A stretch of 64,000 nucleotides of DNA from an uncultured delta proteobacterium. Lineage in GTDB: Bacteria > Desulfobacterota > WTBG01 > CAIYCZ01 > CAIRTM01. Below are positions 31,802 through 62,844 of this stretch, one piece after another. The stretch is from contig CAWDSQ010000030.1 of assembly GCA_963804955.1 (NCBI GenBank), positions 96,001-160,000 of the forward strand, read 5' to 3'. The position numbers and the translations under genes were made by a program. The notes beneath the pieces were generated by a model. That model saw only the letters and a program-made list of their open reading frames with translations, made no database searches and was not told where the DNA came from. How positions within the stretch are numbered: the first letter of the stretch is position 1; every line of letters starts with the position of its first letter.

Positions 31802-33144
31802 ATGTCGGAAGTTGTTAAAAACAAAGGTTGGTCGGTGACATGCGGCGGGCTGGGCATTAATCTTGCCCTTGGAATACTCTATGCCTGGAGTATGTTTAAA
31901 GGCGCCATAGAGAAATCCATAAAAGCAGGCGGTGAAGGCGCGTTTACCTGGGATATGTCTCAGCTGAATGACCCCTATTCAGTATGCTGCCTTGTTTTTG
32001 CTTTTTCAATGATTCTTGCCGGAAAGTGTCAGGACAAATTCGGGCCAAGGATCACGGCTTTTCTGGGCGGGATTATGGTCGGCCTGGGGCTGCTGTGGAT
32101 ATCGCAGTCATCGAGCTATATCAGCTGGGTGCTTGGTTTTGGCGTTCTTGCCGGCACCGGCATCGGTTTCGGTTATTCTTCTGCAACGCCGCCGGCGCTC
32201 AAATGGTTCCCTTCGGCAAAAACAGGTCTGATCGCAGGGCTCGTTGTCGCAGGCTTTGGCCTGGCTCCTGTCTATATTGCACCCCTGTCTGAATATTTAA
32301 TAAATGGATTTGGTATCAGCAAGGCGATGCTCGTCTATGCTGTTTCTTTTATTGTTATTGTGTGCGGACTTTCAACCTTTCTGGTGAATCCTCCGGCAGG
32401 CTATGTTCCGGGCGGTGCTGCTGCACAGAAGAAGAAAGCCGCGGCTGCCAATGATGTGCCTCCTTCCAAAGTTATGAAAAGCCTTGATTTCTGGATGCTG
32501 TGGGCAATTTATTTCATCGGCGCAGGCGCCGGATTGATGGTTATCGGCAGCGTCGCGGGCATGGCCAAGAAGAGCATGGGCTCAGCGGCTTTTGTTGCTG
32601 TGGCGATTATGGCTATCGGCAATGCGGGCGGCCGCGTTCTGGCCGGCATGGCATCCGACAAGTTCGGCCGCAATGCCACGCTTGCCGGCGTTCTGATTTT
32701 TCAGGCGCTCTTAATGATTGCTGCAATCCCCCTGGTCAGCTCACAGGAAACCAGCGCTCTGCTGATCGTGCTGCTTGCCACGTTTATCGGCTTTAATTAT
32801 GGCGCAAACCTGTCCCTGTTCCCGTCCTTCGCCAAGGACCGCTGGGGCCTTAAATCCTTCGGCGTCAACTACGGCATATTGTTTACCGCCTGGGGCGTCG
32901 GCGGCTTTGTCATGAGCCGGGTTCAGCAGACCCTGTACGCAACAACGGGCAGCTATACCTCGTCGCTGCTTATCGCAGCCACCATGCTCACCGCAGGTAT
33001 GGTGCTTGCGCTTATGCTGAAAGCGCCCGAAGACCGCAGCAGCTCCTCAGGTCTGCGCCCGAAGGCGCTGTGTTTCAGCCCGGCCTTGGATACACCATGG
33101 CTGACGGCGGTGAAAAGGTTAAAAAAGAAGAAGAGAAAAAGTAA
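31802..33144 (+). CDS. OFA (oxalate/formate antiporter)-family MFS transporter; the probable true stop at 33144 needs a frameshift near 33030-33050
   Basis: LGILYAWS, QDKFGPR, KWFPSAKTGLIAG, GRVLAGMASDKFGR and NYGILFTAWG. The 600-aa ORF fusion with the next gene is an indel artefact; the shifted frame ends ...LGYTMADGGEKVKKEEEKK*. Confidence 0.85.
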
Positions 33145-33187
33145 GGTTCGGAGCAGAGGTCACGGTAGCGAAATGCGGAGCGGCGGC

Positions 33188-33959
33188 ATGAAGAAAAAAA
33201 TCTGTCATATGATTCCTGAAGAGGAAAAACAGTGCGTCTGGATGACCAGCGGGCTCATCTCCTACAAGCTCTGCACCCGTGATTATCGCTGCGAAGAGTG
33301 TATTTTCGATCAGGTTATACGCAACGAGGCTGCAGTTGACGCCGTCGCCGGCCACGGCGACGGGCTGTCTGCTGCAGCCTCATTATTCAACTGCCGATTC
33401 CCTGCAGGAACATGCCGCTCTTTTCTATCACAGCGGCCACTGCTGGGCCAAGGTCGAGGATGCCGACCAGGTGCGCATCGGCATAGACGGCATCCTTGCC
33501 CAGATGGTCTCACCGGTCAGGACGGTGGTTCTTCCCCAGATTGGCGACGCCGTGGTGCAGGGTCAAAGCTTTGCCCATATTATTCAGGAAAAGCATATCG
33601 TTGAGCTGGTCTCTCCCCTGACCGGAACGATCCTGTCCGTCAACCAGGGCCTGAAAGCAGCACCTCATACCCTTGCCGCCGAGCCCTGGGGCAGGGGATG
33701 GCTCGTGACGATCAGGCCCGACAATCTGGAGCATGATTTGAAGGCGCTCATGTTCGGCAGAAAAGCCATGGAGTGGTATGAGAAAAAAGAGCATGAGTTT
33801 GCCACGGCGCGGGTTGGCATGCTCAGCCGGCATGAGCCGGAGCTCGGGCCCACTCTGCAGGACGGGGGGGAATTGCTCGCGAGCCTTGCCGATATGCTCA
33901 GCCCCGAGCAGTACGAGCGGATTATGGATGTTCTTTTCCGGCCTGAAGATGCTGCGTGA
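33188..33959 (+). CDS. GcvH (glycine cleavage H)-like protein with N-terminal Cys-rich domain (frameshift near 33390)
   Basis: N-terminal CVWMTSGLISYKLCTRDYRCEECIFD; GcvH-like HCWAKVE...VRIGIDG...SPLTGTILSVN...PWGRGWL. Confidence 0.78.
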
Positions 33960-34479
33960 CCCGCAGCTGCTCCCTGCAGCGGCCGCACATATCCACTGAT
34001 TTCTGATCAATATCCTCCACATATGTCGAATTGACCATAACGCAGCCCGGCTGCCTGCAGTGCAGCAGGCCGAAGGTATGCCCGAGCTCGTGAATCGACT
34101 CCTTCACCAGCCGCTCGGTCAGCACAGTCTGGTTTTCGGGCAGGCCGTAAAATTTGCTGTTCAGCCGGTGCAGGGAGACGGCCGCCGCAATGCCGTCGAG
34201 CTGCGCTTCGCCGAACACAAAGGTGAGAATCGGTATGAACAGATCGACATCGGCAACAGCCAGAACCCGGCTGGCGCCGGGCGGCGGAGCCGCGATGATT
34301 TGCAGCAGTATTTTTGAGGAGTTGTACTGCCGGCGGTTGGGGTCGAAGATGCCTGCAAGGTCAAAGGGCAAATCGACGCAGCGCGTGCGGCAGCCGAAGG
34401 CTGTGTGAATGCCCGCCTCAAGCGGTTTCAGCCAGAAGCGGGAGCCTGTCTGGATGGGAGCTATATAAATACAGGACAT
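33922..34479 (-). CDS. Archaemetzincin (M54) Zn protease
   Basis: RRQYNS, DLFIPILTFVFGEA and HELGHTFGLLHC..PGCVM...DQK...C..C. Confidence 0.9.
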   Translation of the reverse strand: MSCIYIAPIQTGSRFWLKPLEAGIHTAFGCRTRCVDLPFDLAGIFDPNRRQYNSSKILLQIIAAPPPGASRVLAVADVDLFIPILTFVFGEAQLDGIAAAVSLHRLNSKFYGLPENQTVLTERLVKESIHELGHTFGLLHCRQPGCVMVNSTYVEDIDQKSVDMCGRCREQLRVTQHLQAGKEHP

Positions 34480-34501
34480 GCGCAGCAGGCCCGCCCACCG
34501 A

Positions 34502-35848
34502 TCATTTTTTCAGGTTGTATTTTTGTATCTTGTTGTACAGGGTCAGGCGGCTGATTTTTAAAATGCCTGCCGCCTGAGCAATATTGCCGCCGGTGCGGTC
34601 GAGTATTTTTTGTATATGGGTTTTTTCAATGTCCTCCATCGAGTCCTCATCGGTTGACCGCGCAGGCCCCAGTAAAAAAGGGAATGACAGGTCGGCCGGC
34701 TGAATCAGCGTGCCTTTGGCGCCGACCATGGCGCGCTCGATAACATTGCGCAGCTCGCGCACATTGCCCGGCCACTCATAGTGCGAGAGCATCTCCAGGG
34801 TTTCCGGGGTCAAATCCGTAACATTTTTATTCATGGACTCTGCGTATTTTTTGACAAAATACCGCGCCAGCAGGGGGATGTCGGCTTTTCTTTCGCGCAG
34901 CGGCGGCAGCACGATGGCAAAAACATTGAGCCGGTAATAGAGGTCCTCGCGGAAGGTGCCTTCGCGCACGGCGTTTTCCAGGTCTTTGTTGGTTGCGCAA
35001 ATGATGCGAAAATCCACATTCAGCAGCTTGTCGCCCCCGAGGCGCATGAACTGCCTTGTTTCTATGACGCGCAGCAGGTCCATCTGCATCTTCATGCCGA
35101 TATTGCCTATCTCATCAAGAAAAACGGTCCCCTTGTCAGCCATTTCCAGCTTGCCCCGGCGGCGGTACAGCGCGCCGGTAAAGGAGCCTTTCTCGTGGCC
35201 GAACAGCTCGCTCTCCAGCAGCCCTTCGGTGTAGGCGCCGCAGTTGATGGTGATGATGGGGAAATAGCGGCGGTTGCTGTTGCTGTGGATCGCCCGGGCG
35301 ATGAGCTCCTTGCCCGTTCCGCTGTCGCCCCGGATCATGACGGTGGAGTCTGTTTTGGCGACCGTTGCGACTTTATCCATGACCTTTTTCAGGGCCGGGC
35401 TGGAGCCCACTATTTCATCGTGGTAGGAGATTTCCTCGATCTGCCGCCGCAGCTGCATGTTTTCCGACAAAAGCCTGCGCTGCTCAACGGCATTCCTGAT
35501 CAGATGCCCCATTTCATCGGGGTCGACGGGCTTGACGATATAGTCGAAAGCGCCCTCCTTGAGCGCCTGAATGCTCGTCTCGACGGAGGCGAAGGCCGTA
35601 ATCATGATGGTGATGATGTTTTTGTCGATCTGCTTGATTCTTCGCTGCAGCTCCACGCCGTCGATGCCCGGCATTTTAATGTCCAGCAGCACGATGTCCC
35701 AGGCGCTGTCCTGGAGCTTCTGCAGAGCCGCGTTGGCGTCTTCGGCGGTATCGACCCGGTAGCCGTCGAACTTAAACCACTTGCTCAGCGCGTCGCGCAC
35801 GGACGTTTCATCATCAACAACCAGTATGCCAATATCTGAGGGATTCAT
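34502..35848 (-). CDS. Sigma-54-dependent NtrC-family response regulator
   Basis: REC domain (VVDDE, LLDIKMP); GDSGTGKE, ESELFGHEKGSFTGA, FREDLYYRL, WPGNVREL; Fis-type HTH. Confidence 0.95.
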   Translation of the reverse strand: MNPSDIGILVVDDETSVRDALSKWFKFDGYRVDTAEDANAALQKLQDSAWDIVLLDIKMPGIDGVELQRRIKQIDKNIITIMITAFASVETSIQALKEGAFDYIVKPVDPDEMGHLIRNAVEQRRLLSENMQLRRQIEEISYHDEIVGSSPALKKVMDKVATVAKTDSTVMIRGDSGTGKELIARAIHSNSNRRYFPIITINCGAYTEGLLESELFGHEKGSFTGALYRRRGKLEMADKGTVFLDEIGNIGMKMQMDLLRVIETRQFMRLGGDKLLNVDFRIICATNKDLENAVREGTFREDLYYRLNVFAIVLPPLRERKADIPLLARYFVKKYAESMNKNVTDLTPETLEMLSHYEWPGNVRELRNVIERAMVGAKGTLIQPADLSFPFLLGPARSTDEDSMEDIEKTHIQKILDRTGGNIAQAAGILKISRLTLYNKIQKYNLKK

Positions 35849-35864
35849 GCGTTACAACTCCTGT

Positions 35865-37321
35865 CTAATGTTTTTCCATATACTGCTGGTTCTGGACCCG
35901 CGGCAGCTTGATCGTGAATTCAGTGCCCCTGCCCATGCTGGACTCGACGCTGATGGTTCCGCCGTGGCGCTGCACGATGCCGTAGACGGCAGAGAGGCCC
36001 AGCCCCAGGCTTTTGTTTGATTCCTTGGTGGAGAAAAAAGGATCGAATATATGGGGCAGAACATCCGCAGGGATGCCCGTGCCGAAATCGATGAGCTTGA
36101 TTTTTACGGCTGTTTTGTCCCGGTAATCGGTACGGATAATTATTTTGTTGTTCGGCGCGAGGCTTCGATGGCGTTGACGATCATGGACACAAGTATCTGC
36201 TGAATCGCTCCCGTATCGCACTGAATGAGATCGTCGCCCGTATCGAGCTCTGCAGCCAGCTCAAGGCTCTTCATTCTGGCGCTGTGGTCGATTACTTTTA
36301 TGCTCACGTCGATGATTTCATTGAGGTGCACCTCTTTGACCTCGCCCATGGTGCGCTTGGCGAACAGCAGCAGGTTTTTGACGATATCGCCGCACCGCTT
36401 GGCCTCATTGGCTATGAGCGTGAGGTTTTCCCGTGTTTCCGCAACCGTTTCGGGCTGCAGGGGCTCCTGCCCGAGGTATTTGGAGGAAAGCTTGGCATAG
36501 GAAAGAATGCCCGACAGGGGGTTGTTGATTTCATGGGCCACCATCGCCGACAGCCGTCCCGAGGGAGGCCATTTTTTCCGTCAGCGTCAGATTTTCCCTT
36601 GTTTTTTTGAGCTCTTCCTCGGCTGCGCGCTGCTGTTTGTGCGTTTTATAGCTGATGCTGATAATGCTGCTCAGCAGGAGCGATATGATCAGGAGAATGA
36701 CTACGGAGAATTTGATGATCTGGCTGGTTATCTCTGCAATTTCGGCTTTTATGTCTTCTATGTAGATGCCGGTGCCGATGATCCAGCCCCAGGGCATAGA
36801 ACCCTTTCACATAGGAAATTTTCGGCAGGATGAGATTCTGGTTATCATAGGATTGCCATTTGTACTGGATGAAGCCCGATCCCTGCGCCTTGACGACATT
36901 GACGAATTCGACGAAAACGCGTTTTCCGTCAGGGTCGGTGTAGTCTGAAAGATCTTTGCCGTTTAGGTCATTGCGGTAGGGATGAATGACCATGCGGGGG
37001 TGCATGTCATTGATCCAGAAATAGTCCTTGACTGCCTGGCCGTAATGGAGGTTTTTAATCTGGTCGATGGCCTGGCGCTGCGCTTCGGCGCGCGTGAGCA
37101 GGCCCTGGCGCTCGTCATTTTCAAGCTTCGCCAGAATATTCCATGCCGAGGTGGTGAGCTCCTGTATCATTTCCCGCTTGCGCTCCAGGCTGGTTTTTTC
37201 GATGGTCGGGATGATAAAGGCGAAAATAACGCGAAATAAACAGAATGAAGGCCAGTATCGTGGGAACGACAATGCGCCACAAAAACGACTTCCAGGGAAA
37301 TGAGATATGCGGAGATATCAT
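35865..37321 (-). CDS. Membrane sensor histidine kinase with single Cache (sCache_2-like) domain; several frameshifts
   Basis: Fragments give TM - YFWINDMHPRMVIHP...PWGWIIGTGIY - TM - EKMASLG...AHEINNPL - NAIEA - DFGTGI, FDPFFSTK, GLGLS. Confidence 0.85.
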
Positions 37322-37488
37322 AGCTGTGCACCACTCGCTTGATTTATTCAGCACATAGTCGGTATGTGCGCCGATTGCCGGCAGCCTGTGGGCCTTCACA
37401 TTTGAAATTAACTGTTTTAGTAACCCTTTTCTTAATGCCACTATATGAAAATCAGGGGCATACGTTAATTGAAAAAGGAAAATCCCAG

Positions 37489-37552
37489 CGTCATTCCGGC
37501 TTGTCCGGAATCCTTCCGCTGCGGTGGAAAAGATCCGGACAGCCGGAATGAC
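37489..37552. repeat. REP-like hairpin
   Basis: GTCATTCCGGCTTGTCCGGAATC...GATCCGGACAGCCGGAATGAC inverted repeat. Confidence 0.65.
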
Positions 37553-37581
37553 AGTCTGATGTTACGTACGGGGATTGTATC

Positions 37582-38366
37582 TCATACAAAATCAAATGTG
37601 AAGGCCCTGTCAGACAGCTCCCGCGGTCCATCCGGCCGAATGATTTTTAATTTCGCCAGCAGCTTTTCTATAAACGGCGTTTTTTCCCACTCAAGCCTGT
37701 GCTTGATAATGGTCAGCTGGAAATCCGCGTCCAGAAGCCCGAAGCCTTTCCATGCACCCTCCAGGCCATAGTAGGCCGTATGGCTGTCGCTGCAGGAAAA
37801 CCATTTGTGATGATGGCCGAACAGCCACAGCTTCGGCTTGAAATGCGCAGCCAGCTCCTGGCTGCGGGGAAAACCGGTGGCGCCGAAATGGTCCAGGCCG
37901 GGCGTGCTGGGCACGCCGATACCGGTCGGGCAGTCATGGGTCAAAATAATATCGACCTGCTGCCCGGGCAAAGGCCAGGCAGGCATTAATCTGCTGATCG
38001 GTTATGATCGCCCCCTGTTCGGTCAGCATGGAGTCCATATAGGCAGCTCCCCCAAGGGCCAGAAAACGGTAGCCCTCTATGCAGTGAACTGTGCCGCGGG
38101 GCAGATAGGTGAAAAAGGCCTGATACTTTTTGGTCAGCTTCTCAAGAGCATTGAAATCCTCATGGTTGCCGTCGATACAATACAGGGGCCGCATAAAGCG
38201 CTGCCCTTTTTTTATGAAAAAGTCGTGCAAATGGGATTTGTAGAGGCCGAAGTCCCCCAGGTGAATGATGCAGGAGATCTTCATGGCCGAGCACGTTTTC
38301 GGCATAGGCAAGCTGCTGGTTGATGGTGCCGTAGTAGCAATGGGTATCGCAGGTTACCAGAATCAC
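37582..38366 (-). CDS. Calcineurin-like metallophosphoesterase (frameshifted)
   Basis: DTH, HLGDFG, DGNHED, LTHDCP and FGHHH motifs across three fragments. The GTG start overlaps the TGA of the upstream gene. Confidence 0.85.
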
Positions 38367-41307
38367 TGGACACCTCCGATCTGGCCGGTGAAATCATAGC
38401 TCAGCTTTGCCTGGAAATTTTTTATCTGGGAGAAAATTTCCTTGAGCAGCTTTTGCTCGATAGAGGTCAGGTTTTTCGGGGTCACATAATTGTCGGGCTT
38501 TGCGTTTCCCGGCCGCTATTGCCGCAGCCTGAACCTGCAGCCGTATCTGCATGAGATAGCTGTATGCCTGCACCATTTCCTGGTAATTCAGCAGATGTCA
38601 GCACGCGCGCGCTCATGCAGCCCCAGCAGCCGCTCCAGCGTGTTGGTGGCGGGAACGCCGTGCTTGAGGGCGTAGATGCGGGCATAGTCGACAATGGGCA
38701 TCATGGCGCTTTTAATGTCAAAGGCCTTGCGGTGCTCGTCCACGGATTCGACGACAAATTTTCCGAACAGCCCGATCGGCGGGCTGAGCGGCAGAACATT
38801 GCGGGCCAGCAGCTGAAAAAATCTCGGGTTGTCGGCAACCATGGCAGCAAGAAAATCCCGCAGCTCTCCCGCGAGGCCGTCGTCTCCGAAGGCGCAGCGA
38901 AAGTCGAAAAATATTTTTGTTTTCAGGAGGTCTTCAGCCGAAGCCGCATGAATCCACTGGCTGAAATACCGCTTCCATACGGTAAGGGGCTGGCACCACT
39001 GGGGATTTTGCGCCATGTTGTTGCCCTCGCAGTAGTGGTACCCGGCCTGGTTCAGCCATCTGCAGACCATGGCGCCCAGTTTGAGGAAGTATGCCTGTAC
39101 AACCGATGACTCCAGGTCGGCGGCGGTGTCCTCAAAAATAATCGCATTGTCCTGGTCGGTCATGAGGGTCTGTTCCTGCCGGCCCTCGCTGCCGAATACC
39201 AGAAAAGCAAACCGCACCGGGGGCGGGCCCAGTTCCCGGATGGCAAATTCCAGGAGCTTTTGCAGAATCGTGTCGATCACGATGGTGGTCAGATGGTTTA
39301 TGCTTTGAGGCTTTGCGCCGCTCTTGATGAGGGTTGTTATGAGATAGGGGAGAACCTCATTATGCCTGATCACTTCGTCGGGTGATGTGTCATTGCGTAT
39401 CTCCCAGAGCAGCACCGCTGGCGAATACTTCTGAATGGCGGCTATATCCTTGCTGTTGATTAAGCCGATGATGGCGCCATGGGTATCGGTGACGAAAAGA
39501 TGGGCAATGCCCTTATTCTGCATAAGCCACCAGGACTCAAATACCGATGCATTGCCCGGCAGTGAAATAACGGGAGACGACATGATCTCGGCTACCGGGC
39601 GGTCCTCATGCTCGTGCAGGAGCATCACGGCCTTTCTCAGATCATGGTCGGTGATGACGCCGCAGTCCCTTCCCTCTGCATCGCGCACCAGCAGGACCTC
39701 GTTGTGCTGCTGCTCCATCATGCGCACCGCTTCCCCGATCGGCATGCCGGGATGGCATAGTGCCGGCTGGCGACAGGGCAGGCCGCCAAGGGGCTGATTA
39801 TAAAACAGCAGCACCGACTGCGTTTCGGAAAGGAGTTTTTCCCTTTCCTCCTCTCTCATATGCAGCTCAGTAATATCTTCCATGATGCCGTCACAGTATC
39901 GCGGCGACGCCGTCTTCGTCTTCGACCATGACGCCCCAGATGGAAGCGGTAAATACGGAGCCGTCTTTTTTCTTGAGCCTGACGATCTCCCTTTTCAGGT
40001 CTTCGGCAGATGCTTTCGGCTCAAGGGTTTTACGGTCGTCGGGGTTGCAGTACAGGCTTATGACCGGGGTGAGCGAGCAGCTCTTCCTTGCTTGCGTAGC
40101 CCAGCAGTTTCACCAGCGCTGGATTTGCTTCGATAAATTTCGGGTTCGGGCCGATGGTCCGTCGGAAAATACCCACGTTGAGATTGTTGGCAAGTGTTCT
40201 GAATTTTTCTTCGCTGCGGCCCAGGGCATCCTCTGCCTGCTTGCGTTTGGTAATATCGGTTACAACGGCCATGAAGCCGGTTTTGCCGCCGATTTCTATC
40301 GGGGATGTCGACAGAATAACATCTTTGGTTCCGCCTGATTTTGTTTTGAGCTGTGCTTCAAATGTTGCGGGAACCGATTTGCCGGCAAGCAGCTCATCCA
40401 GGAACCGGCTGCTCTGCTGGTCGTTTGATTCAGCCAGAACCGTGCGCACCGGCATGCCTGCGAAACTCGCTTTTATCGTATTCCAGCATGGCCGCTATTG
40501 TCTGATTGGCGTGCATGTAGGTTCCTTCAAGGGCCATGAGCATGCCTTCGCCTGCCGATTCGACAAGGGTGCGGTATTTTTCTTCGGAATCGCGCAGGGC
40601 CTGCTCCGCCAGCTGCTGCTGCTTGAGCGTGGCGTAGCTTTGCCTGATGATGCTCGCCAGCAGCAGCGAGATTATCAGCAGGATGAAAAAGGAAATTTCA
40701 AAAAGGTTGCGTGTTAGTTCGCTGATTTCAGCCTGGACGTCGTCGATGTAAATGCCGGTTCCGATGACCCAGCCCCAGGGCTGGAAACCTTTGACATAGG
40801 AGAGTTTCGGCAGAATGCGGTCCTCTTTATCCTTCCACTGCCACATGTACTGCATATAGCCGGCGCCCTGCCGCTTCACCAGGTCGACAAAATCCACAAA
40901 AACCCGCTTGCCTTCAGGGTCGGTGTAATCGGAAAGGTCCTTGCCATTGAGGTCGGTCCGGTACGGGTGGATAACCATGCGCGGGTGCATGTCGTTTATC
41001 CAGAAATAATCCTTCATCTCCTGGCCGTAGTGCAGGTTCTTAATCTGCTCGATGGCCTGGCGTTTGGGCCTGCGGCCGCGTGAGCAGGCCCTGCTGCTTC
41101 ATCATGCTCGAGCTTCGCGAGAATGTTCCAGGCCGAGTTGGTCAGCTCGCGGATCATTTCCCGCTTCCGGTCCATGCTGCTTTTTTCAATGGCGGGGATA
41201 ATAATGGAAAAGAAGGCGATGACAAACAGCGCTATGGTGACAGCCGTCGGGAAAACGAACCGTGCCGCAAATGACTTCCACTGGGTTGATATGTGCGGGG
41301 CAAACAT
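38363..41307 (-). CDS. Membrane-anchored Cache-PAS-PAS-CBS-DUF294 putative nucleotidyltransferase (~980 aa, several frameshifts)
   Basis: Collinear fragments 41014-41307, 40430-41017, 40030-40455, 38588-39883 and a C-terminal tail. Order: TM, sCache_2, TM, two PAS domains (SEEKYRTLVE, DITKRKQAE, SEEKFRTL), CBS pair, GSEGRQEQTLMTDQDN, FFDFR, FDIK...PIVDYAR, TNTLERL. Confidence 0.78.
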
Positions 41308-41319
41308 CGCGTAAACCTC

Positions 41320-41499
41320 TAACCGGCTGTTGGAAAACGCCCATCTGCTGCGTTGCGCTCATCGTGCTTCACTGCGGCGTACAAAAAGTACGCCTCATTT
41401 CGCATGATTGCCTGCAAGCAGGTGTCACAGACAGCGCGCGCCTTGCATCTGAGCATTTTTGAACAGCCTTCTCCTGGTGACTTTTTCAACACCCTGCTA
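41320..41499. mobile_element. MITE-like element, copy 1
   Basis: Termini GGCTGTTGGAAAA / TTTTTCAACACCCTGCTA; homologous to 62552-62844. Confidence 0.7.
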
Positions 41500-41620
41500 A
41501 TCCTCTGCTGAGCCCATACTGCTGCTGCCGTGTGCAAGACAGAATACACGGGGCACCGCATTCCTGTCAAGAAGCACAGGCAAACAATTCGTCCCCGGCT
41601 GACGCGGCCGGCTCGTTAAG

Positions 41621-41659
41621 AAAACGGGGGAGAACACCCCATTTGCTGTTCTCCCCCGT
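41621..41659 (-). terminator. Terminator after actP
   Basis: ACGGGGGAGAACA / TGTTCTCCCCCGT hairpin followed by Ts on the minus strand. Confidence 0.6.
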
Positions 41660-41692
41660 CACCGTATGCATCAGCGCAGCCTTCCTGTCCGT

Positions 41693-43597
41693 TCAGGCGG
41701 CGGCTTTTTTCTGCGAAAACAGCGATACGACAATAAGCGTTATATAGCCCAGGGGTATTGAAATGATGCCCGGGTTGTCAAGCGGTATCGGCGCTGAGGC
41801 TTTGGGCAGGCCGTACAGATCAACATAGGTGCTGGGCGACAGCAGAATGATCCCGAGCGCCGTGACCATGCCGACCACGATGGATGCCGCGATGCCCTTG
41901 GAGGTCGTCTTTTTCCAGAACAGCAGCATGGTGATGGCCGGCAGGTTTGCCGAGGCGGCAACCGCAAAGGCAAGGCCGACCAGAAATGAAACGTTCATGC
42001 CTTTGCATAAAATGCCCAGAATAATGGCGATGACGCCAACGACAACAGCGGCGATTTTGCCTGCCTTCACCTGCCCCTTGTCCGTCATCTCTATGCCAAG
42101 AAATCCAGTCATCAGATCATGGGCCACCGCGCCGGAGGCGGCAACGATGAGCCTGAAACCGTTCCCAGAACCGTTGCAAAAGCAATGGCGCAGATGCAGG
42201 AGAAGATGGTGATGCCGAAGTATTTCGCCAGCAGCGGCGCCGACATATTGCTGCTTTCCATGTCAAGAACACCCGTCATCATGGCGCCAAGGCCCATGAA
42301 CAGGGTCAGAACATAGAAAAAGCCGATTGAGCCGATGGCCACGATGGTTGACTTGCGGGCATCCTTGGGGCTCGAGACCGTGTAGTAGCGGATGAGAATA
42401 TGGGGCAGGGCCGAGGTGCCGAAGAACAGGGCGATCATGAGCGAAATGAAATTCAGGCGCGACATGAAGTCAGCTCCCTCGTCGACCTTGAACTTCAGGC
42501 CCGGCCGCATGATGTCTGGAGCCTGCCGTGGGGTTCTGCCGCCAGATGGTGACCTTGTCGCCGCCGTCCTTGACAACTGCTTTGGCAAAGCGGACCACTT
42601 CGGACCGCTCGATGGTGGCCAAAAATTCAAAGGGCCCGAGAGCGCCGGTTTTCTGGACCTCTTTGCCGTCGACGATGATTTTGCTGGCATGGCCGACCTG
42701 GTAGAACTTCCTGGCATCCTTGGGCTCGCCGTTATACAGGGTTTTGCCGTCGGCGGTTTTTGTCATGGAAAGGGCTTCCTTGAGTACCGGTCCGCCGTCT
42801 TTGGCGCTCACATGCCACCAGGTGGCAATGCCGTTCTGTGTGAGTTTTGCAAAGAGGGCTTTGCCGTCCTTGAAGGTGCCGGCGACGGTATATGCCGGGT
42901 CTGCAACCGCGGTAACGGCGTCATTTGCCACAGTGGCGTTTATGGTTTTAAACTTGTGATAGTTTGCATCCGGGGGGGTGTTAATGCCGTTGACGAAAAT
43001 ACTGATGGTGAGAATGGTTGAAAAAACAATCAGCAGGCCGCCCTTGATGAACTGCACATAGGTGGTTGATGTCATGCCCGCGGTTGCAACTATAAAGATA
43101 ACGATGGCGCCGACAAGGATAACCCCCATGTAGTGGGGAAGCCCCAGCAGCGGGGTTACCAGGTCGCCTGCGCCGACCATCTGGGGAATCAGGTAGCATA
43201 CGGAAACAACCAGCGTGCTGATGGCTGCCGTGAGCATGATTCCCCTGGACCCGAACTTGTAGTTGAGCGCATCGGTGAAGGTGTATTTGCCGAAGCGCTT
43301 AAGCGGTTCGGCCACAACAAACAGGGCAACGACCCAGCCGGCAAGGTAGCCGATTGAATACAGAAAGCCGTCATAGCCGTCAAAGGCGATCATGCCGCAG
43401 ATGCCGAGAAATGACGCGGCTGAAAGATAGTCGCCGGCAAAGGCTATGCCGTTAACGCCCCAGTGAATATTGCCGCCGGCGGCATAATAGCCCTTGGAGG
43501 ACTGTGTTTTTTTTGCAAAGTATGAAGAAAGCCCGAGCACGCCGAGTACAAAAGCTATAAATATGCCAATTGCAAATGGTGATGCTGCATAAATCAT
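41693..43597 (-). CDS. actP: Cation/acetate symporter ActP (SSS family), frameshifted
   Basis: NGIAFAGDYLSAASFLG, AEPLKRFGKYT, YLIPQMVGAG, GTSALPHILIRYYTV, AFATVLGTV and AFAVAASANLP; downstream of DUF485. Confidence 0.88.
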
Positions 43598-43612
43598 TGT
43601 TCGTCTCCCCTT

Positions 43613-43882
43613 TTATTTGTTTAATTCATATTCTTTTTTGGTGCACATGTGGTTGTAGATAACACCCATTATGATGGCTAAAAGAATCAGGCCGAAACCG
43701 TACACGCAGGCAAGATTCAGCCCCGCCATGACGATAATGCCCATGGTTTTGGGGCTCATTACATTGATGACGATAAAGCCGGCATAAACCAGCACATAAA
43801 ATATAAATAAATATATCCCGAGCCGCGCCTTATACTCGGAAGCCCTGTCCTCACCCCATTGTGTTGCTGGTCCATGTCCCAT
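43613..43882 (-). CDS. DUF485 (YjcH-like) small membrane partner of ActP
   Basis: 89 aa with two TM segments, immediately upstream of actP, which is the canonical arrangement. Confidence 0.8.
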   Translation of the reverse strand: MGHGPATQWGEDRASEYKARLGIYLFIFYVLVYAGFIVINVMSPKTMGIIVMAGLNLACVYGFGLILLAIIMGVIYNHMCTKKEYELNK

Positions 43883-44303: not shown

Positions 44304-44620
44304 ACATCTCGAGCCCTTCAGCACTTCGCTCAGGGCAGGCTTCCGGGAGCAGATCTTTGTTTTTGGAGTAGATTGATGCGCGCGGCGAACCTTCAGACTC
44401 AGTTGCTCTCACCTCCCCTTAATCCCTCCCATCAAAGGCTGTGTCATAATTAAAATAAATGTCATTCTGAGGAGCCGCAGGCGACGAAGAATCTCGTTGC
44501 TTGATGATTATATGAGAAAGGGCGAATGGCCATTCGCCCCTACGCAACGCCAGAGATCCTTCGTTTCACTCAGGATGACCGCACTATTTAATTGCTACAC
44601 AGTCTCTTGCGGGGGGAGGT
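44304..44620. repeat. Cluster of nested REP-like elements
   Basis: CTTCGCTCAGGGCAGGCT module; TGTCATTCTGAG...CTCAGGATGAC pair enclosing a GTAG-type REP (GGGCGAATGGCCATTCGCCCCTAC). Confidence 0.6.
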
Positions 44621-44718
44621 GGGGCTCCAGGCGGCTTGCGGTGTATCGGGTGTTGCCAAAACCCTTGCCCGGCTGCGCTGCGCGTGGTAGTATACCTGTT
44701 TTACCGGAGCAGCTATAC

Positions 44719-46356
44719 ATGATTCATATTACCAATATCAGCAAGCAGCATGGCTCGCAGATTCTTTTCAAGAACGCGAGCCTTCAGATTCTGCCCGGCA
44801 CGCGCACGGGCCTGGTGGGGCCCAATGGCGCCGGCAAGACCACGGTTTTTCGCCTCATTACCGGCCAGGAAGAGGCTGACTCGGGCGATATATCAGGTCC
44901 CGAAGCGCACGAAAATCGGCTATTTCTCCCAGGATGTGGGCGATATGGCAGGCCGGTCCGCCCTTGGCGAGGTCATGTCGGCCGTAGGGGATGTGATGAG
45001 CCTGGGGGAGGAGATACGCGCGGATGGAGCAGGCCATGGCCCTGCCCATGGCTGATGAGGAGATGGCAGAGCTTCTGGAGCGCTACGGCAATGCCGTGGA
45101 GCAGTTCGAGCACAGCGGCGGCTATGATCTTGAGTCGCGCGCCCAGACCGTGCTCACCGGCCTTGGCATCGGCCCGGATGATTATGACCGGCCCGTTGAA
45201 TCGTTCAGCGGCGGCTGGAAAATGCGCATCGAGCTGGCGAAAATACTCACCATCAACCCCGATGTGCTGCTGCTTGACGAGCCCACCAACCATCTTGACA
45301 TGGAGTCGATCAGTCTGGCTTGAAGACTGGATTGTCACGCAGTTCAAGGGCGCGCTGCTCATGACCTGCCATGATCACGATTTCATGAACCGCATCGTGT
45401 CGCGCATTATCGAGGTTGCCAACCAGAGCCTCACCACGTATTCGGGCAATTACGACTTTTACCTGCGCGAGCGCGAGATACGGCGCGAGCAGCTGCTGGC
45501 CAGCTACCGCCGGCAGCAGGAAATGCTTGCCAAGGAAGAGGACTTCATCGCGCGCTTTGCCGCCCGGGCCTCCCATGCCTCGCAGGTGCAGTCGCGGGTG
45601 AAGAAAATAGATAAGATCGAGCGCATCGAGCTGCCGCCCGAGCAGCGCGTCGTATCATTCGAGTTTGCCGAGCCGCCGCGCTCGGGCGATGATGTGGCCC
45701 GCATCGTGAATCTCGGCAAGGTGTGGCAGCATGACGACGGCACGGAGAAATCGGTCTTCGGCGGCGTGTCGGGCATCATCCGGCGGCAGGACAAGATCGC
45801 CGTGGTGGGCGTCAACGGCGCGGGCAAGTCGACCTTTCTGAAAGTGCTGGCCGGCCAGACCGAGCCGACAACCGGCAGCCTCACCATCGGCGCAAACGTC
45901 ATCCCCGGCTATTTCAGCCAGCATGCCATGGATCTGCTCGATCCCGACAAAACCGTGTATGAGACTGTGCAGGATGCCATCCCCATGGCAAATATCGGCG
46001 TGGTCAGAAATCTCTGCGCAGCCTTTCTGTTTCAGGGCGATGCTGTTGAGAAGCGCATAAAGCTGCTGTCGGGCGGCGAGAAGAGCAGGGTGCTGCTGGC
46101 AACGCTGCTTGCCCGGCCCTTAAATCTGCTGATTCTGGATGAGCCCACCAATCATCTTGATTTTCAGTCGCGCCAGATACTGCTGCAGGCGCTTGCCAAA
46201 TTCACCGGCACCGTGGTGCTGGTGAGCCACGACCGGTATTTCCTTCGCTCCCTCGTGGGCCGCGTGTTTGAAATCGACCACGGCGAGATGATCATCTACG
46301 AAGGCAGCTACGAATACTATGTCAGCAAAACCCAGCGCAATGTCCAGGCCGCCTGA
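44719..46356 (+). CDS. ABC-F family ATPase (compensating frameshifts at about 44900-45320)
   Basis: GPNGAGKT, FSGGWKMR, LLLDEPTNHLD, GVNGAGKST, LSGGEK, LDEPTNHLD and VSHDRYF; no TM domains. Confidence 0.9.
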   Translation: MIHITNISKQHGSQILFKNASLQILPGTRTGLVGPNGAGKTTVFRLITGQEEADSGDISGPEAHENRLFLPGCGRYGRPVRPWRGHVGRRGCDEPGGGDTRGWSRPWPCPWLMRRWQSFWSATAMPWSSSSTAAAMILSRAPRPCSPALASARMIMTGPLNRSAAAGKCASSWRKYSPSTPMCCCLTSPPTILTWSRSVWLEDWIVTQFKGALLMTCHDHDFMNRIVSRIIEVANQSLTTYSGNYDFYLREREIRREQLLASYRRQQEMLAKEEDFIARFAARASHASQVQSRVKKIDKIERIELPPEQRVVSFEFAEPPRSGDDVARIVNLGKVWQHDDGTEKSVFGGVSGIIRRQDKIAVVGVNGAGKSTFLKVLAGQTEPTTGSLTIGANVIPGYFSQHAMDLLDPDKTVYETVQDAIPMANIGVVRNLCAAFLFQGDAVEKRIKLLSGGEKSRVLLATLLARPLNLLILDEPTNHLDFQSRQILLQALAKFTGTVVLVSHDRYFLRSLVGRVFEIDHGEMIIYEGSYEYYVSKTQRNVQAA

Positions 46357-46847: not shown

Positions 46848-47213
46848 ATGAAGAAGGATGCCAGGAAATCAACACGCATATCGACCAATCTGAAGCTTAT
46901 ATCCCGTAATTCCGGCAATTGCATAGATTCTCACCTAATGAATATGAGCAGTGGGGGTGCTTTTATTCAAACCAGTCACCTCCTGCCAATCGATGCTGAA
47001 TTTTCTTTAAATCTTCAACTGCCCGGCGATCCTGAAATTATGGCCATTGACGGACGTGTCGTCTGGACGAAGTCTGTTTCCAACTCTTCTCCTGCCGGCA
47101 TGGGCATACAGTTCACGAATATTCAGCCCCATCATGAAAAGAAACTGGCTGCTTTTGTTGAGCAGAATCGTAATCCGGACAGCAGCGCTGAGCCGGTCAA
47201 ATTATATTTGTAA
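46848..47213 (+). CDS. Stand-alone PilZ-domain protein (c-di-GMP receptor)
   Basis: RKSTR (RxxxR) and NMSSGG (NxSxxG) motifs; GRVVW...GMGIQF. Confidence 0.88.
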   Translation: MKKDARKSTRISTNLKLISRNSGNCIDSHLMNMSSGGAFIQTSHLLPIDAEFSLNLQLPGDPEIMAIDGRVVWTKSVSNSSPAGMGIQFTNIQPHHEKKLAAFVEQNRNPDSSAEPVKLYL

Positions 47214-49687: not shown

Positions 49688-50484
49688 AAAGGGGACGGTT
49701 CTATTTTATTGACGGCGAGGGTCGGTTTTGCTAGTATAGATAGGAATGTGAAAGTTTAAGTAAGGGTAGGGTATGCCGCGAGCAGCACGAATAGCGCCGA
49801 AAGAATATATCTATCATGTCATGACCCGGGGCAATAACCGGCAGGCAGTGTTCGAGGATGATGACGACTATACCCGGTACCTTGAAATTATGCAGCAGTA
49901 CCGGCAGAAATACACATTCAAGCTGTACCACTATGTGCTCATGAGTAACCATGTTCACCTGGTGCTGCAGCCATCGGAGCGTGGCGGAGCCCTTTCAGAA
50001 ATAATGAAGGGCATCAATCTCACGTATGCCTATCACTATAAAAAGAAGTATAAGCATACAGGGCATTTCTGGCAGGACAGGTATAAAAGCATCATCGTAT
50101 CACGGGATGAATATCTGGTGGCCTGCGGTGCCTATGTTGAACTGAATCCGGTGCGGGCACGCATGGTAAAAGACCCGAAAGAGTACCGCTGGAGCAGTTA
50201 TACCCGGTATGCTTATGGGAAAGAGAACGCGCTGCTTGATAGGCAGCTTTCGTACCTGCAGTTGGGGCAAAAGACAGCAGAGTGTCAGCAGAAGTACCGG
50301 CAGTTTGTGAAGGATCTGTTAAAAGAGAAGAAGGCGATGAAGGGGGAGATGGACCGGAGGCTTGCCTACGGTAACAGTGATTTTATTGTAATGCTGTCAA
50401 CGAAGCATACAATCAGCGGTGAGCTTCGAGCAAGAGGGCGCCCCAAAAAGCAGGTGGAAGATAATATATAGAACCGTCCCCTTT
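49688..50484. mobile_element. RAYT cassette bounded by 17-bp perfect inverted repeats
   Basis: AAAGGGGACGGTTCTAT (49688-49704) and ATAGAACCGTCCCCTTT (50468-50484); the right end is partly duplicated to 50501. Confidence 0.7.
49773..50471 (+). CDS. REP-associated tyrosine (Y1 HUH) transposase, RAYT/TnpA
   Basis: MPRAAR..YHVMTRGNNRQAVF, YVLMSNHVHL (HUH), FWQDRYKS, YVELNPVRA, YRWSSY and RGRP. Confidence 0.92.
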   Translation: MPRAARIAPKEYIYHVMTRGNNRQAVFEDDDDYTRYLEIMQQYRQKYTFKLYHYVLMSNHVHLVLQPSERGGALSEIMKGINLTYAYHYKKKYKHTGHFWQDRYKSIIVSRDEYLVACGAYVELNPVRARMVKDPKEYRWSSYTRYAYGKENALLDRQLSYLQLGQKTAECQQKYRQFVKDLLKEKKAMKGEMDRRLAYGNSDFIVMLSTKHTISGELRARGRPKKQVEDNI

Positions 50485-62551: not shown

Positions 62552-62844
62552 TAGCAGGCTGTTGAAAAACGCCCATCTGCTGCGCCTGCGCTCACCATGC
62601 TTCACTGCGGCGTACAAAAAGCAGGTCTCATTGTCTGCCTCCACAACCTTTGGCTGTGGAGGCAGAAGGCAACATGGCACTTTGTGCCCGTGTCTTCCCT
62701 TTCAGTGGAAGACACGCCACCCGCCCTGCGGGTGGTTGTTGACTACGCATGATTGCCTGCGCGCAGGTGTCAGAGACAACGCACGCCTTGCATCCGGGCA
62801 TTTTTAAACAGCCTTCCCCTATTGGTTTTTTTCAACACCCTGCT
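62552..62844. mobile_element. MITE-like element, copy 2, with a ~110-bp internal insertion
   Basis: TAGCAGGCTGTTGAAAAA / TTTTTCAACACCCTGCT termini; shares both arms with 41320-41499. Confidence 0.7.

Follow-up and report, generated by a model that had tools for sequence, protein, structure and literature searches.

What does a bacterial membrane receptor do when its output domain is a nucleotidyltransferase, and what is the role of a phosphoesterase encoded directly behind it? These questions are raised by a locus in the 64,000-nt stretch of DNA analysed here (the window), which corresponds to positions 96001-160000 of contig C30 of G000, the genome of an uncultured delta proteobacterium that is assembled in 36 contigs and estimated to be 87% complete. 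There, an initial annotation had recognised the fragments of a receptor nucleotidyltransferase followed by a metallophosphoesterase (MPE), and had suggested that the two form a pair. Our analysis bears that observation out, with a gene pair that is both real and conserved. We propose that it carries out carboxylate-gated, reversible protein nucleotidylylation that acts on monocarboxylate uptake or activation and is erased by the MPE. The probability of this proposal is placed at a little under one half (about 0.45), because we infer which activity, nucleotide, target and direction are involved, and because some genomes have no such eraser. Compared with what is known of the DUF294 family, to which the nucleotidyltransferase belongs, the novelty lies in the membrane receptor input and in the MPE partner.

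Reconstruction of the two genes

In the assembly, the receptor is scattered over six stop-to-stop frames of the minus strand (41014-41358, 40430-41098, 40030-40494, 38588-39994, 38394-38597 and 38363-38515). Once eight inserted bases are ignored, these pieces form one gene, 41307-38363 on the minus strand, which encodes a single protein of about 978 aa. The domain order, as given by Pfam on the frame pieces, is a first transmembrane segment (TM1), sCache_2, a second transmembrane segment (TM2), PAS, PAS, a CBS pair, DUF294 and DUF294_C. The MPE gene follows on the same strand (37582..38366) and encodes 254 aa in G003, the genome of the same genus (93.7% DNA identity to the window) that served as the reference for reading frames.

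Relative to G003, the receptor gene contains single-base insertions near 41099, 41061, 40466, 40074, 39908, 38605, 38592 and 38505, and the MPE gene contains two, near 38283 and 37961; the two genes show zero deletions, and zero of the insertions fall within homopolymers. In contigs of four other metagenome runs, one base is absent at, or at most 4 nt from, nine of the ten insertion sites, the tenth site (40074) being absent from the run-contig rows shown. These contigs are 88-99% alike to the window and stem from relatives and not from the source sample, since no run contained more than 0.18 of the sampled words. When the private bases are dropped, the receptor reads through 978 codons with 0 stops at a ratio of nonsynonymous to synonymous substitution rates (dN/dS) of 0.117, and the MPE through 244 codons with 0 stops at 0.126; the sigma-54-dependent response regulator of the same locus, which is intact, gives 0.072. 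A value of 0.81 with 8 stops for the neighbouring kinase gene was discarded, as the frame reference was wrong: the G003 kinase is itself split in two frames. In relatives, an uninterrupted open reading frame (ORF) of 976-1021 aa is directly followed by one of 244-260 aa in 9/9 loci. An intact receptor ortholog, with its Cache domain at residues ~40-200, is also encoded by the cultured Desulfatiferula olefinivorans (JCM14469_41490). Because the genes of relatives are intact and dN/dS is 0.12, the frameshifts are read, by this comparison of sequences, as assembly errors and not as decay, and the organism is concluded to have both genes intact. The single frame of about 980 aa that the initial annotation had pieced together from fragments is thus borne out by the frameshift-aware alignment, and once the private bases are dropped no stop separates the Cache/PAS part from the CBS-DUF294 part.

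The two genes overlap, as had also been noticed earlier, in the sequence GTGA at 38366-38363, in which the receptor stop TGA occupies 38365-38363 and the MPE start GTG occupies 38366-38364. A GGAGG lies 6 nt upstream of this GTG. The last codons of the receptor read ...TGQIGGVQ-TGA, and the MPE opens with VILVTCDTH...

Within 34400-43700, the ActP-like symporter gene (three pieces) and the histidine kinase gene are likewise broken by single-base indels relative to G003. This pattern suggests that indel errors occur across the whole assembly, possibly also depressing the 87% completeness estimate. A second actP-receptor-MPE copy is found on contig C29 of the same genome (L023:5296-11444), with 88-94% DNA identity to the window copy and also frameshifted; the contig terminates just past its MPE gene. 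This copy may be a paralogue or belong to a co-binned strain.

The nucleotidyltransferase output module

The output of the receptor comprises two domains on the minus strand: a DUF294 pol-beta-type nucleotidyltransferase core that carries GSEGRQEQTLMTDQDN (38939..39349; PF03445, 3.8e-45), and a DUF294_C helical substrate-binding domain of the KNTase_C/HEPN-like kind (38366..38827), which is matched by PF10335 on three frame pieces and is complete in orthologs. The motifs FGSEGRQEQTLMTDQDN and GSEGRQEQTLMTDQDN are both located in piece 38588-39994. The window pieces score 153.6 bits on PF03445 (cut-off 21) and 76.6 bits on PF10335 (cut-off 22.5), and full-length orthologs about 150 bits on each. 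Pol-beta-type enzymes have the catalytic consensus G-[SG]...D-x-[DE] and, in addition, a third acidic position. In 40/40 aligned modules, G71, S72, G74, R75, E77, D83, Q84, D85 and D167 are invariant, so that the intact DUF294 output claimed earlier holds with G71, S72, D83, D85 and D167 all in place.

The last 345 residues were modelled with a mean predicted local distance difference test score (pLDDT) of 92.8. With this model, Foldseek returned just four matches from the PDB at E<=1e-3, namely DrrA/SidM (6yx5_B), the N-terminal domain of GlnE (1v4a) and two chains of the C-terminal domain of GlnE (3k7d); the next match was ANT(4'), with a TM score of 0.33. A second structural aligner, which is independent of Foldseek, was run against 48,161 representative chains, with scores taken over 297-299 residues. 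It gave 26.8 for the N-terminal domain of GlnE (1v4a), 26.2 for the C-terminal domain (3k7d) and 24.5 for DrrA (6yx5_B), compared with 9.3 for ANT(4'), the best other whole-module match, and far lower scores for RNA-specific transferases and HalB; HEPN-like chains align to model residues ~190-340. By its modelled fold, the module is therefore a protein nucleotidyltransferase of the GlnE/DrrA type with its catalytic residues intact. The initial annotation had proposed a GlnD/GlnE-like fold, which the model extends to the whole module, since it resembles the protein AMPylases GlnE and DrrA throughout; the alternative of nucleotide-messenger synthesis, which had been put forward alongside, finds no support in the fold.

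At the sequence level, the resemblance to GlnE and GlnD is faint, with about 12% identity to GlnE and weak matches to GlnD_UR_UTase (9.4e-06) and to the GlnE NCBIfam model. The logic predicted for the receptor is the same as in those enzymes, that is, reversible nucleotidylylation beside a sigma-54 two-component system. In contrast to GlnE and GlnD, however, the receptor has a single nucleotidyltransferase module, without a second (removing) module and without HD or ACT domains, so that any removal of nucleotide would fall to a separate hydrolase; it is anchored in the membrane with an extracytoplasmic sensor; and its context is carbon (acetate), whereas theirs is nitrogen.

The metallophosphoesterase

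Calcineurin-like metallophosphoesterases carry the metal-ligand motifs D-x-H, GD, GNH[ED], H and GH-x-H. Among 39 MPE sequences, D7, G37, D38, N67, H68, H143, H184 and H186 are invariant and H9 is present in at least 90%. The intact ortholog scores 41.7 bits on PF00149 (cut-off 21.5), and the MPE model has a pLDDT of 89.2. No signal peptide is apparent, because the protein begins directly at the first beta-strand. Dbr1 entries are the sole PDB sequence matches of the family profile (E 2e-14, residues 2-204), and Dbr1 is also the top fold match (Foldseek E 2e-12), followed by MPPED2, Rv0805, GpdQ and SbcD/Mre11, all of them phosphodiesterases or nucleases. Among the 47 Foldseek matches listed, there is no PPP/PPM protein phosphatase; purple acid phosphatases are present, and phosphodiesterases and nucleases dominate. 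The ESM Atlas yielded generic metallophosphoesterase clusters alone, and the 445 clusters of the family at E<=1e-5 likewise bear generic names alone. Judged by its residues and relatives, the MPE is a complete metallophosphoesterase of the phosphodiesterase/nuclease branch. The calcineurin-like phosphoesterase that had been annotated downstream of the receptor thus stands, with its metal-ligand motifs complete and with Dbr1 and other phosphodiesterases as relatives.

The MPE shares with Dbr1 the motifs HD-x-P-x-GI and KPK-x-W-x-x-GH-x-H, but differs from it in several respects. It has 254 aa as compared with about 350, and members of its family (231-263 aa) are without the C-terminal domain, the profile aligning only with residues 11-252 of the 356-residue Dbr1 chain. 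Its first metal ligand is D7, where the aligned Dbr1 chain 4peh has Ser; in wild-type Dbr1 this position is Cys. It is also bacterial and coupled to a nucleotidyltransferase gene, not to splicing. The possibility that the MPE is a Dbr1 orthologue was ruled out on the missing C-terminal domain and the Asp kept at the first ligand.

Recurrence of the pair and its genomic company

A one-genome-per-species scan with the MPE alignment found 58 loci, of which 46 have at least 42% identity. The receptor-MPE pair recurs in at least six phyla, the 46 loci belonging to Thermodesulfobacteriota, Spirochaetota/Leptospirales, Riflebacteria, Victivallales, Kiritimatiellia, Margulisiibacteriota and unclassified lineages. 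In 43 of these 46 loci, a same-strand ORF ends at most 120 nt before the MPE start; the exceptions are L031 (whose flank is just 180 nt), L066 and L068. Twenty-four upstream ORFs spread over the taxa were scanned with Pfam, that is, 22 of the 43 plus L070 and L071, with near-duplicates and contigs of genomes already covered left out. DUF294 and DUF294_C occur in 24/24 of them, and an N-terminal sCache_2 in 22, the exceptions being L046 (a 625-aa open frame with CBS and DUF294) and L059 (384 aa). The region in between varies: CBS may be preceded by two PAS domains or by one, PAS may occur without CBS, or both may be absent.

Transporter genes were counted with a hidden Markov model built from 12 neighbouring proteins of the sodium:solute symporter family (SSF), which was searched within the fetched flanks of 48 MPE loci. 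An SSF symporter is found in 32/48, and in 19 of the 26 loci for which full 5-kb flanks were available on both sides. In G030, the receptor gene is immediately preceded by that of acetyl-CoA synthetase (Acs). Two genomes whose Cache-DUF294 gene has no MPE, G051 (L125) and G161 (L126), show a different arrangement, in which this gene closes a cluster of a dCache kinase, a sigma-54 regulator, a SatP/YaaH-family channel and a small stand-alone Cache protein. In view of SSF near the MPE loci, SatP near the MPE-less genes and Acs in G030, the constant companion of the receptor is a small-carboxylate transporter, from one of two unrelated families, or Acs. A kinase and a sigma-54 regulator near the pair are frequent, not universal. 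At L126, an acyl-CoA synthetase and an aldehyde:ferredoxin oxidoreductase-alcohol dehydrogenase fusion are also encoded nearby.

The sensor and its likely ligand

The input half of the receptor begins with the extracytoplasmic sCache_2 sensor (approx. 40700..41163, minus strand; Pfam 1.9e-31), which is flanked by hydrophobic segments near 41197-41268 and 40625-40690 on the same strand, as delineated by the hydropathy of three orthologous sensor modules. Two cytoplasmic PAS domains follow (approx. 39850..40594, minus strand; Pfam PAS_8, PAS_9 and PAS on pieces 40430-41098 and 40030-40494), and both PAS stretches are also present in intact orthologs. The CBS pair (approx. 39424..39787, minus strand; Pfam CBS 1.2e-19, in 2 stretches of piece 38588-39994) connects them to the output. 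HisKA and HATPase_c were sought by Pfam and are absent from the receptor, both in the window pieces and in the orthologs, whereas the neighbouring kinase gene has both.

The closest PDB sequence matches of the receptor sCache_2 are PscD-SD (5g4y, 1e-36) and Adeh_3718 (4k08, 1e-34). PscD-SD is reported to bind glycolate, acetate, propionate and pyruvate, with Y90, W92, H103, F126, Y143, W145 and K156 contacting propionate, and Adeh_3718 was crystallised with acetate (PMC5062169). In the HMMER alignment to 5g4y, all seven of these contacts are retained in the G003 ortholog, and the same seven are retained in the receptor piece 40430-41098 and in the kinase piece 36646-37317. The top NCBIfam match of the receptor is MctS, a sensor kinase of monocarboxylate transport. 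The ligand is thus likely to be a C2/C3 carboxylate. At the level of sequence, the receptor resembles the sCache_2 carboxylate sensors PscD, McpP and Adeh_3718 (7/7 contacts of PscD) and the sensor kinase MctS; unlike them, it has neither a kinase nor the signalling domain of a chemoreceptor as its output.

The sensor of the neighbouring histidine kinase is closely similar. Over the first 235 residues (transmembrane segment, Cache, transmembrane segment), the identity of receptor and kinase is 63-76%, whether the two come from one genome or from different ones among five genomes, as compared with 71-79% between one receptor and another. Because their sensor modules are this alike, the receptor and the kinase very probably read the same ligand.

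Soluble relatives and published systems

The DUF294 nucleotidyltransferase is widespread, with 1965 clusters at E<=1e-10 and a match in 76/301 sampled genomes of the phylum. The soluble relatives have a cyclic nucleoside monophosphate (cNMP)-binding domain followed by CBS and DUF294, and the closest of them are 54-57% identical to the receptor in the nucleotidyltransferase region. The soluble loci compared here were drawn from the phylum scan, as the class-level scan yielded Cache-type genes alone. In 20 loci of the soluble type, the gene directly downstream is an RNase_T exonuclease in 11 and a sigma-54 regulator in 3; in one no family was assigned and in five no ORF was called. Since RNase_T stands directly downstream in 11/20 loci, the MPE and the RNase T exonuclease occupy the same place beside closely related transferases, and the initial annotation was right to set cNMP-CBS-DUF294 proteins beside an exonuclease, here within the same phylum. 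RNase T-type exonucleases and Dbr1 both break an X-O-P-O5'-nucleoside phosphodiester on its X side, so that the nucleotide keeps the 5' phosphate. Cleavage on the X side is also the reaction needed to strip a nucleoside monophosphate (NMP) from a protein hydroxyl.

In 1999, Aravind and Koonin predicted that DUF294/COG2905 proteins act as regulatory nucleotidyltransferases (cited in PMC5715377). Pflu5625 of Pseudomonas fluorescens and PP_0354/PP_0353 of P. putida are described as direct targets, of unknown function, of the acetate two-component system CrbS/R (MxtR/ErdR) (PMC5715377, bioRxiv 10.64898/2026.09.07.749794). In P. putida, pp_0354 (cNMP-CBS-nucleotidyltransferase) and pp_0353 (RNase T-like) form an operon that is a target of MxtR/ErdR, and in P. 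aeruginosa the counterparts of the two genes adjoin actP and yjcH; the authors speculate about mRNA degradation by pp_0353 (PMC9927547). Deletion of pp_0353 causes a pyruvate defect. In our own reading, which is not that of the authors, a silent writer mutant together with a hydrolase mutant that mimics loss of the transporter is what one would expect of an inhibitory mark taken off by the hydrolase. The receptor shares with these COG2905-type proteins the core of CBS, DUF294 and DUF294_C, the two-gene operon with a hydrolase directly downstream, and links with a two-component system and with genes for acetate/pyruvate uptake (PMC5715377, PMC9927547, bioRxiv 10.64898/2026.09.07.749794). It differs from them in its input, which is a transmembrane sCache_2 with two PAS domains and not a cytoplasmic cNMP-binding domain (PF00027 has no match in the window pieces or the orthologs, and is present in the soluble relatives), in its downstream hydrolase, which is a metallophosphoesterase and not a DEDD exonuclease, and in its distribution, mostly among uncultured anaerobes.

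Two further lines of published work are relevant. In a random barcode transposon-site sequencing (RB-TnSeq) study, a nearby 'COG2905 (RNAse T domain protein)' was cofit with a DUF4212/SSS lactate/alanine symporter (bioRxiv 10.1101/072470). The second is the writer-eraser gene pair of SidM/DrrA and the adjacent binuclear-metal deAMPylase SidD (PMC12409994). There, a writer gene adjoins the gene of a binuclear-metal hydrolase that takes off the AMP, much as the putative writer gene described here adjoins that of the MPE. SidD, however, has a PPM-phosphatase-like fold, whereas the MPE is calcineurin-like; DrrA is a secreted effector that acts on a host GTPase, whereas the receptor is a housekeeping-type membrane protein; and the sequence identity between DrrA and the receptor module is 12-14%. 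The same review lists three AMP-removing folds, and none is a calcineurin-like phosphoesterase (PMC12409994). In the literature searched, there was no metallophosphoesterase acting as a deAMPylase and no Cache-DUF294 receptor.

Proposed mechanism

In our proposal, the protein would be a transmembrane receptor that uses protein nucleotidylylation as its output in place of phosphorylation. The periplasmic sCache_2 would bind a C2/C3 carboxylate (acetate, propionate, pyruvate or glycolate), and the signal would be relayed via the two PAS domains, to which the CBS pair may add an adenylate or energy input in this lineage. The GlnE/DrrA-type module, once switched, would move an NMP from a nucleoside triphosphate to a side-chain hydroxyl of some protein in the cytoplasm or membrane. 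For reversal, the translationally coupled MPE would hydrolyse the X-O-P-O5'-nucleoside phosphodiester, free 5'-NMP and reset the target, and the RNase T-type exonuclease beside the soluble cNMP-CBS-DUF294 relatives would do the same chemistry. The process under control would be monocarboxylate uptake or activation, via the ActP/YjcH symporter, via some factor on which that symporter depends for its activity, or via Acs. Such control would be post-translational and parallel to the neighbouring kinase and sigma-54 regulator, which would read the same ligand for transcription.

A more specific version can be formulated, in which extracellular acetate or pyruvate acts through sCache_2 on an AMPylase or UMPylase whose target is ActP/YjcH, SatP, Acs or a factor that these require, the Dbr1-like MPE removes the mark, and the receptor is the first transmembrane receptor of this kind. 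We regard this version as possible but doubtful.

Several observations weigh against reversible nucleotidylylation with the MPE as eraser. Verified Cache-PAS-PAS-CBS-DUF294 genes exist in G051, G197 and G161, and the MPE profile has no match in these genomes save for a weak partial one (E 9.7e-6) elsewhere in G161; G203 (L128) and G306 are not counted as verified Cache-type genomes, and the ORF picked at L128 is not a DUF294 gene. To judge from these genomes, the MPE eraser is dispensable in cis. The earlier suggestion that the phosphoesterase replaces the exonuclease as eraser is accordingly retained in part: the two share the same gene place, but the phosphoesterase is not obligatory. A search among 593 candidates found no credible fusion of the nucleotidyltransferase with the MPE. 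The SSF and SatP companions are unrelated to each other, which speaks against a direct modification of the transporter itself. The AMP-removing N-terminal domain of GlnE matches the module as well as the AMP-adding domain does, and the fold therefore gives no direction, that is, whether nucleotide is added or removed. The adenylate gating through the CBS pair that the initial annotation had suggested is conjectural, and a CBS match at E 1e-6 is missing in L039, L052, L061, L062, L064, L067 and L069. The RNase T and Dbr1-like MPE families are best known for acting on nucleic acids, and the literature searched contained no biochemical study, activity, ligand or target for any DUF294 protein.

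The only apparent DUF294-MPE fusion among the 593 candidates, P0241 (505 aa), was rejected as most likely an artefact of frame errors in a noisy metagenome contig of high GC content, because both of its catalytic motifs are replaced by out-of-frame-looking, Arg/Pro-rich stretches.

Alternative explanations

The alternative that survives best is that the nucleotidyltransferase acts on nucleic acid, extending an RNA at its 3' or 2' end, or produces a short oligonucleotide or another nucleotide signal; the MPE or RNase T would then trim or degrade what it makes. The hydrolases point in this direction, as both belong to families of nucleic-acid phosphodiesterases, RNase_T being the direct neighbour in those 11/20 soluble loci; the sole PDB sequence relatives of the MPE are of Dbr1, a 2'-5' RNA debranching enzyme; SbcD/Mre11 is among its fold neighbours; and mRNA degradation is the function speculated for pp_0353 (PMC9927547). 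The transferase itself points elsewhere, in that its C-terminal domain is of the GlnD/GlnE-type helical kind (Pfam GlnD_UR_UTase, 9.4e-06), and the MPE departs from Dbr1 in having no C-terminal domain and an Asp where the aligned Dbr1 chain has Ser. We consider this explanation unlikely.

It is also conceivable that the MPE is the real output and hydrolyses a soluble nucleotide (cyclic, or of the diadenosine tetraphosphate (Ap4A) type that acyl-adenylate enzymes form as a side product) or the phosphodiester head group of a lipid. DUF294 would then be a nucleotide-binding or AMP-removing regulator, and the receptor would regulate the MPE or bind its substrate. Such a division of roles would fit the one-sided dependence of the two genes (DUF294 is upstream of the MPE in 24/24 cases, yet DUF294 genes exist without MPE), the presence of the cNMP phosphodiesterases Rv0805 and MPPED2 and the glycerophosphodiesterase GpdQ among the fold neighbours, the cNMP-binding domain of the soluble relatives, an adenylate cyclase gene located two genes upstream in locus L052, and the AMP-removing GlnE domain as the top structural match. 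On the other hand, the invariance of G-S...D-x-D and the third Asp in 40/40 modules would not be expected of a mere binding domain, and the equivalent place in soluble systems is taken by an exonuclease and not by a cNMP phosphodiesterase, which together make this explanation improbable.

That the window copy is a decaying pseudogene or a chance reconstruction, encoding nothing functional, was rejected as hardly credible on the indel map against G003, the run contigs and dN/dS: ten frame-breaking single-base insertions do lie within 3.7 kb, and the C29 copy, 94% identical, is frameshifted too, but all ten lesions are +1 insertions without which neither a stop nor a larger lesion is left, the neighbouring ActP and kinase genes bear the same kind of single-base indel, the extra bases are absent from relatives and from four independent runs, and the pair is intact in every one of the nine relatives' loci.

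Significance of the membrane-bound form

The function of the DUF294 family is easier to approach in the membrane-bound form than in the soluble one, since it offers a sensor with a strongly predicted ligand (C2/C3 carboxylates), which the soluble form lacks. Its second, unrelated hydrolase partner narrows the chemistry shared by the two forms to the release of 5'-NMP from a phosphodiester, and the membrane-bound form is tightly linked, across several phyla, to transporters of the acetate type. If the proposal is true, nucleotidylylation would join the outputs of bacterial transmembrane receptors, and a post-translational layer would be added to the control of acetate/pyruvate uptake, a process central to anaerobic carbon flow. 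In the more specific and doubtful version, the Dbr1-like MPE would represent a fourth fold for de-nucleotidylylation. With the near-identical sensor of the kinase, one ligand would then have two parallel read-outs, transcriptional and post-translational, and mixed receptor dimers might even be formed.

Organisation of the surrounding locus

The genes of the locus lie on the minus strand in the transcription order DUF485, ActP, a 385-nt spacer, receptor, MPE, kinase, sigma-54 regulator and archaemetzincin-like peptidase. The first of them encodes a small, YjcH-like DUF485 membrane protein (43613..43882; PF04341, 3.7e-08), and is followed by the ActP-like sodium:solute symporter (41693..43597), whose three frame pieces cover positions 1-406 of the Pfam SSF profile. 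Beyond the MPE, the sensor histidine kinase (35865..37320) consists of a transmembrane segment, sCache_2, a second transmembrane segment, HisKA and HATPase, as found by Pfam on its pieces; it is frameshifted in this assembly, and its ortholog in G030 is intact with 492 aa. The intact sigma-54-dependent response regulator (34502..35848) has REC, AAA+ and HTH_8 domains by Pfam. The archaemetzincin-like Peptidase_M54 gene comes after it (33922-34479), and the order is the same in G030.

A scan for sigma-54 promoters (TGGCAC-N5-TTGCW, at most 2 mismatches) gave 36 matches as compared with 49 expected by chance, with none convincing upstream of the operon. In the spacer region 41200-41800, Rfam gave two chance-level matches alone, both far under their gathering scores. 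Just upstream of the receptor start, the spacer contains a copy of a dispersed repeat of about 85 nt (41317..41400, without strand assignment; delimited by an alignment of 13 copies). The repeat has 21 matches in the genome at 73-100% identity, this copy included, another lying at about 62557-62632. It has sharp borders and a conserved hairpin (GGCGTAC, 5-7 nt, GTACGCC), and four metagenome runs show a very high contig depth at this spot; Rfam gave no match for it, and compensatory change was seen in 0/18 predicted pairs. It looks like an element of the repetitive extragenic palindrome (REP) or miniature inverted-repeat transposable element (MITE) kind, and probably has no part in the receptor mechanism.

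Next to the operon on the plus strand, at 31802-33959, an ORF for a transporter of the major facilitator superfamily (MFS; 600 aa) overlaps a GcvH-like ORF (33279-33959). This combination of MFS and GcvH-like genes also adjoins the module in the Leptospirales locus L030 and in G030, and an MFS gene adjoins it in L036 and L051 (Leptospirales), where only MFS was scored. Upstream of the operon lie genes for an ABC-F type ATPase (44497-46356), a PilZ-domain protein (46848-47213) and an IS200-like Y1 transposase (49773-50471).

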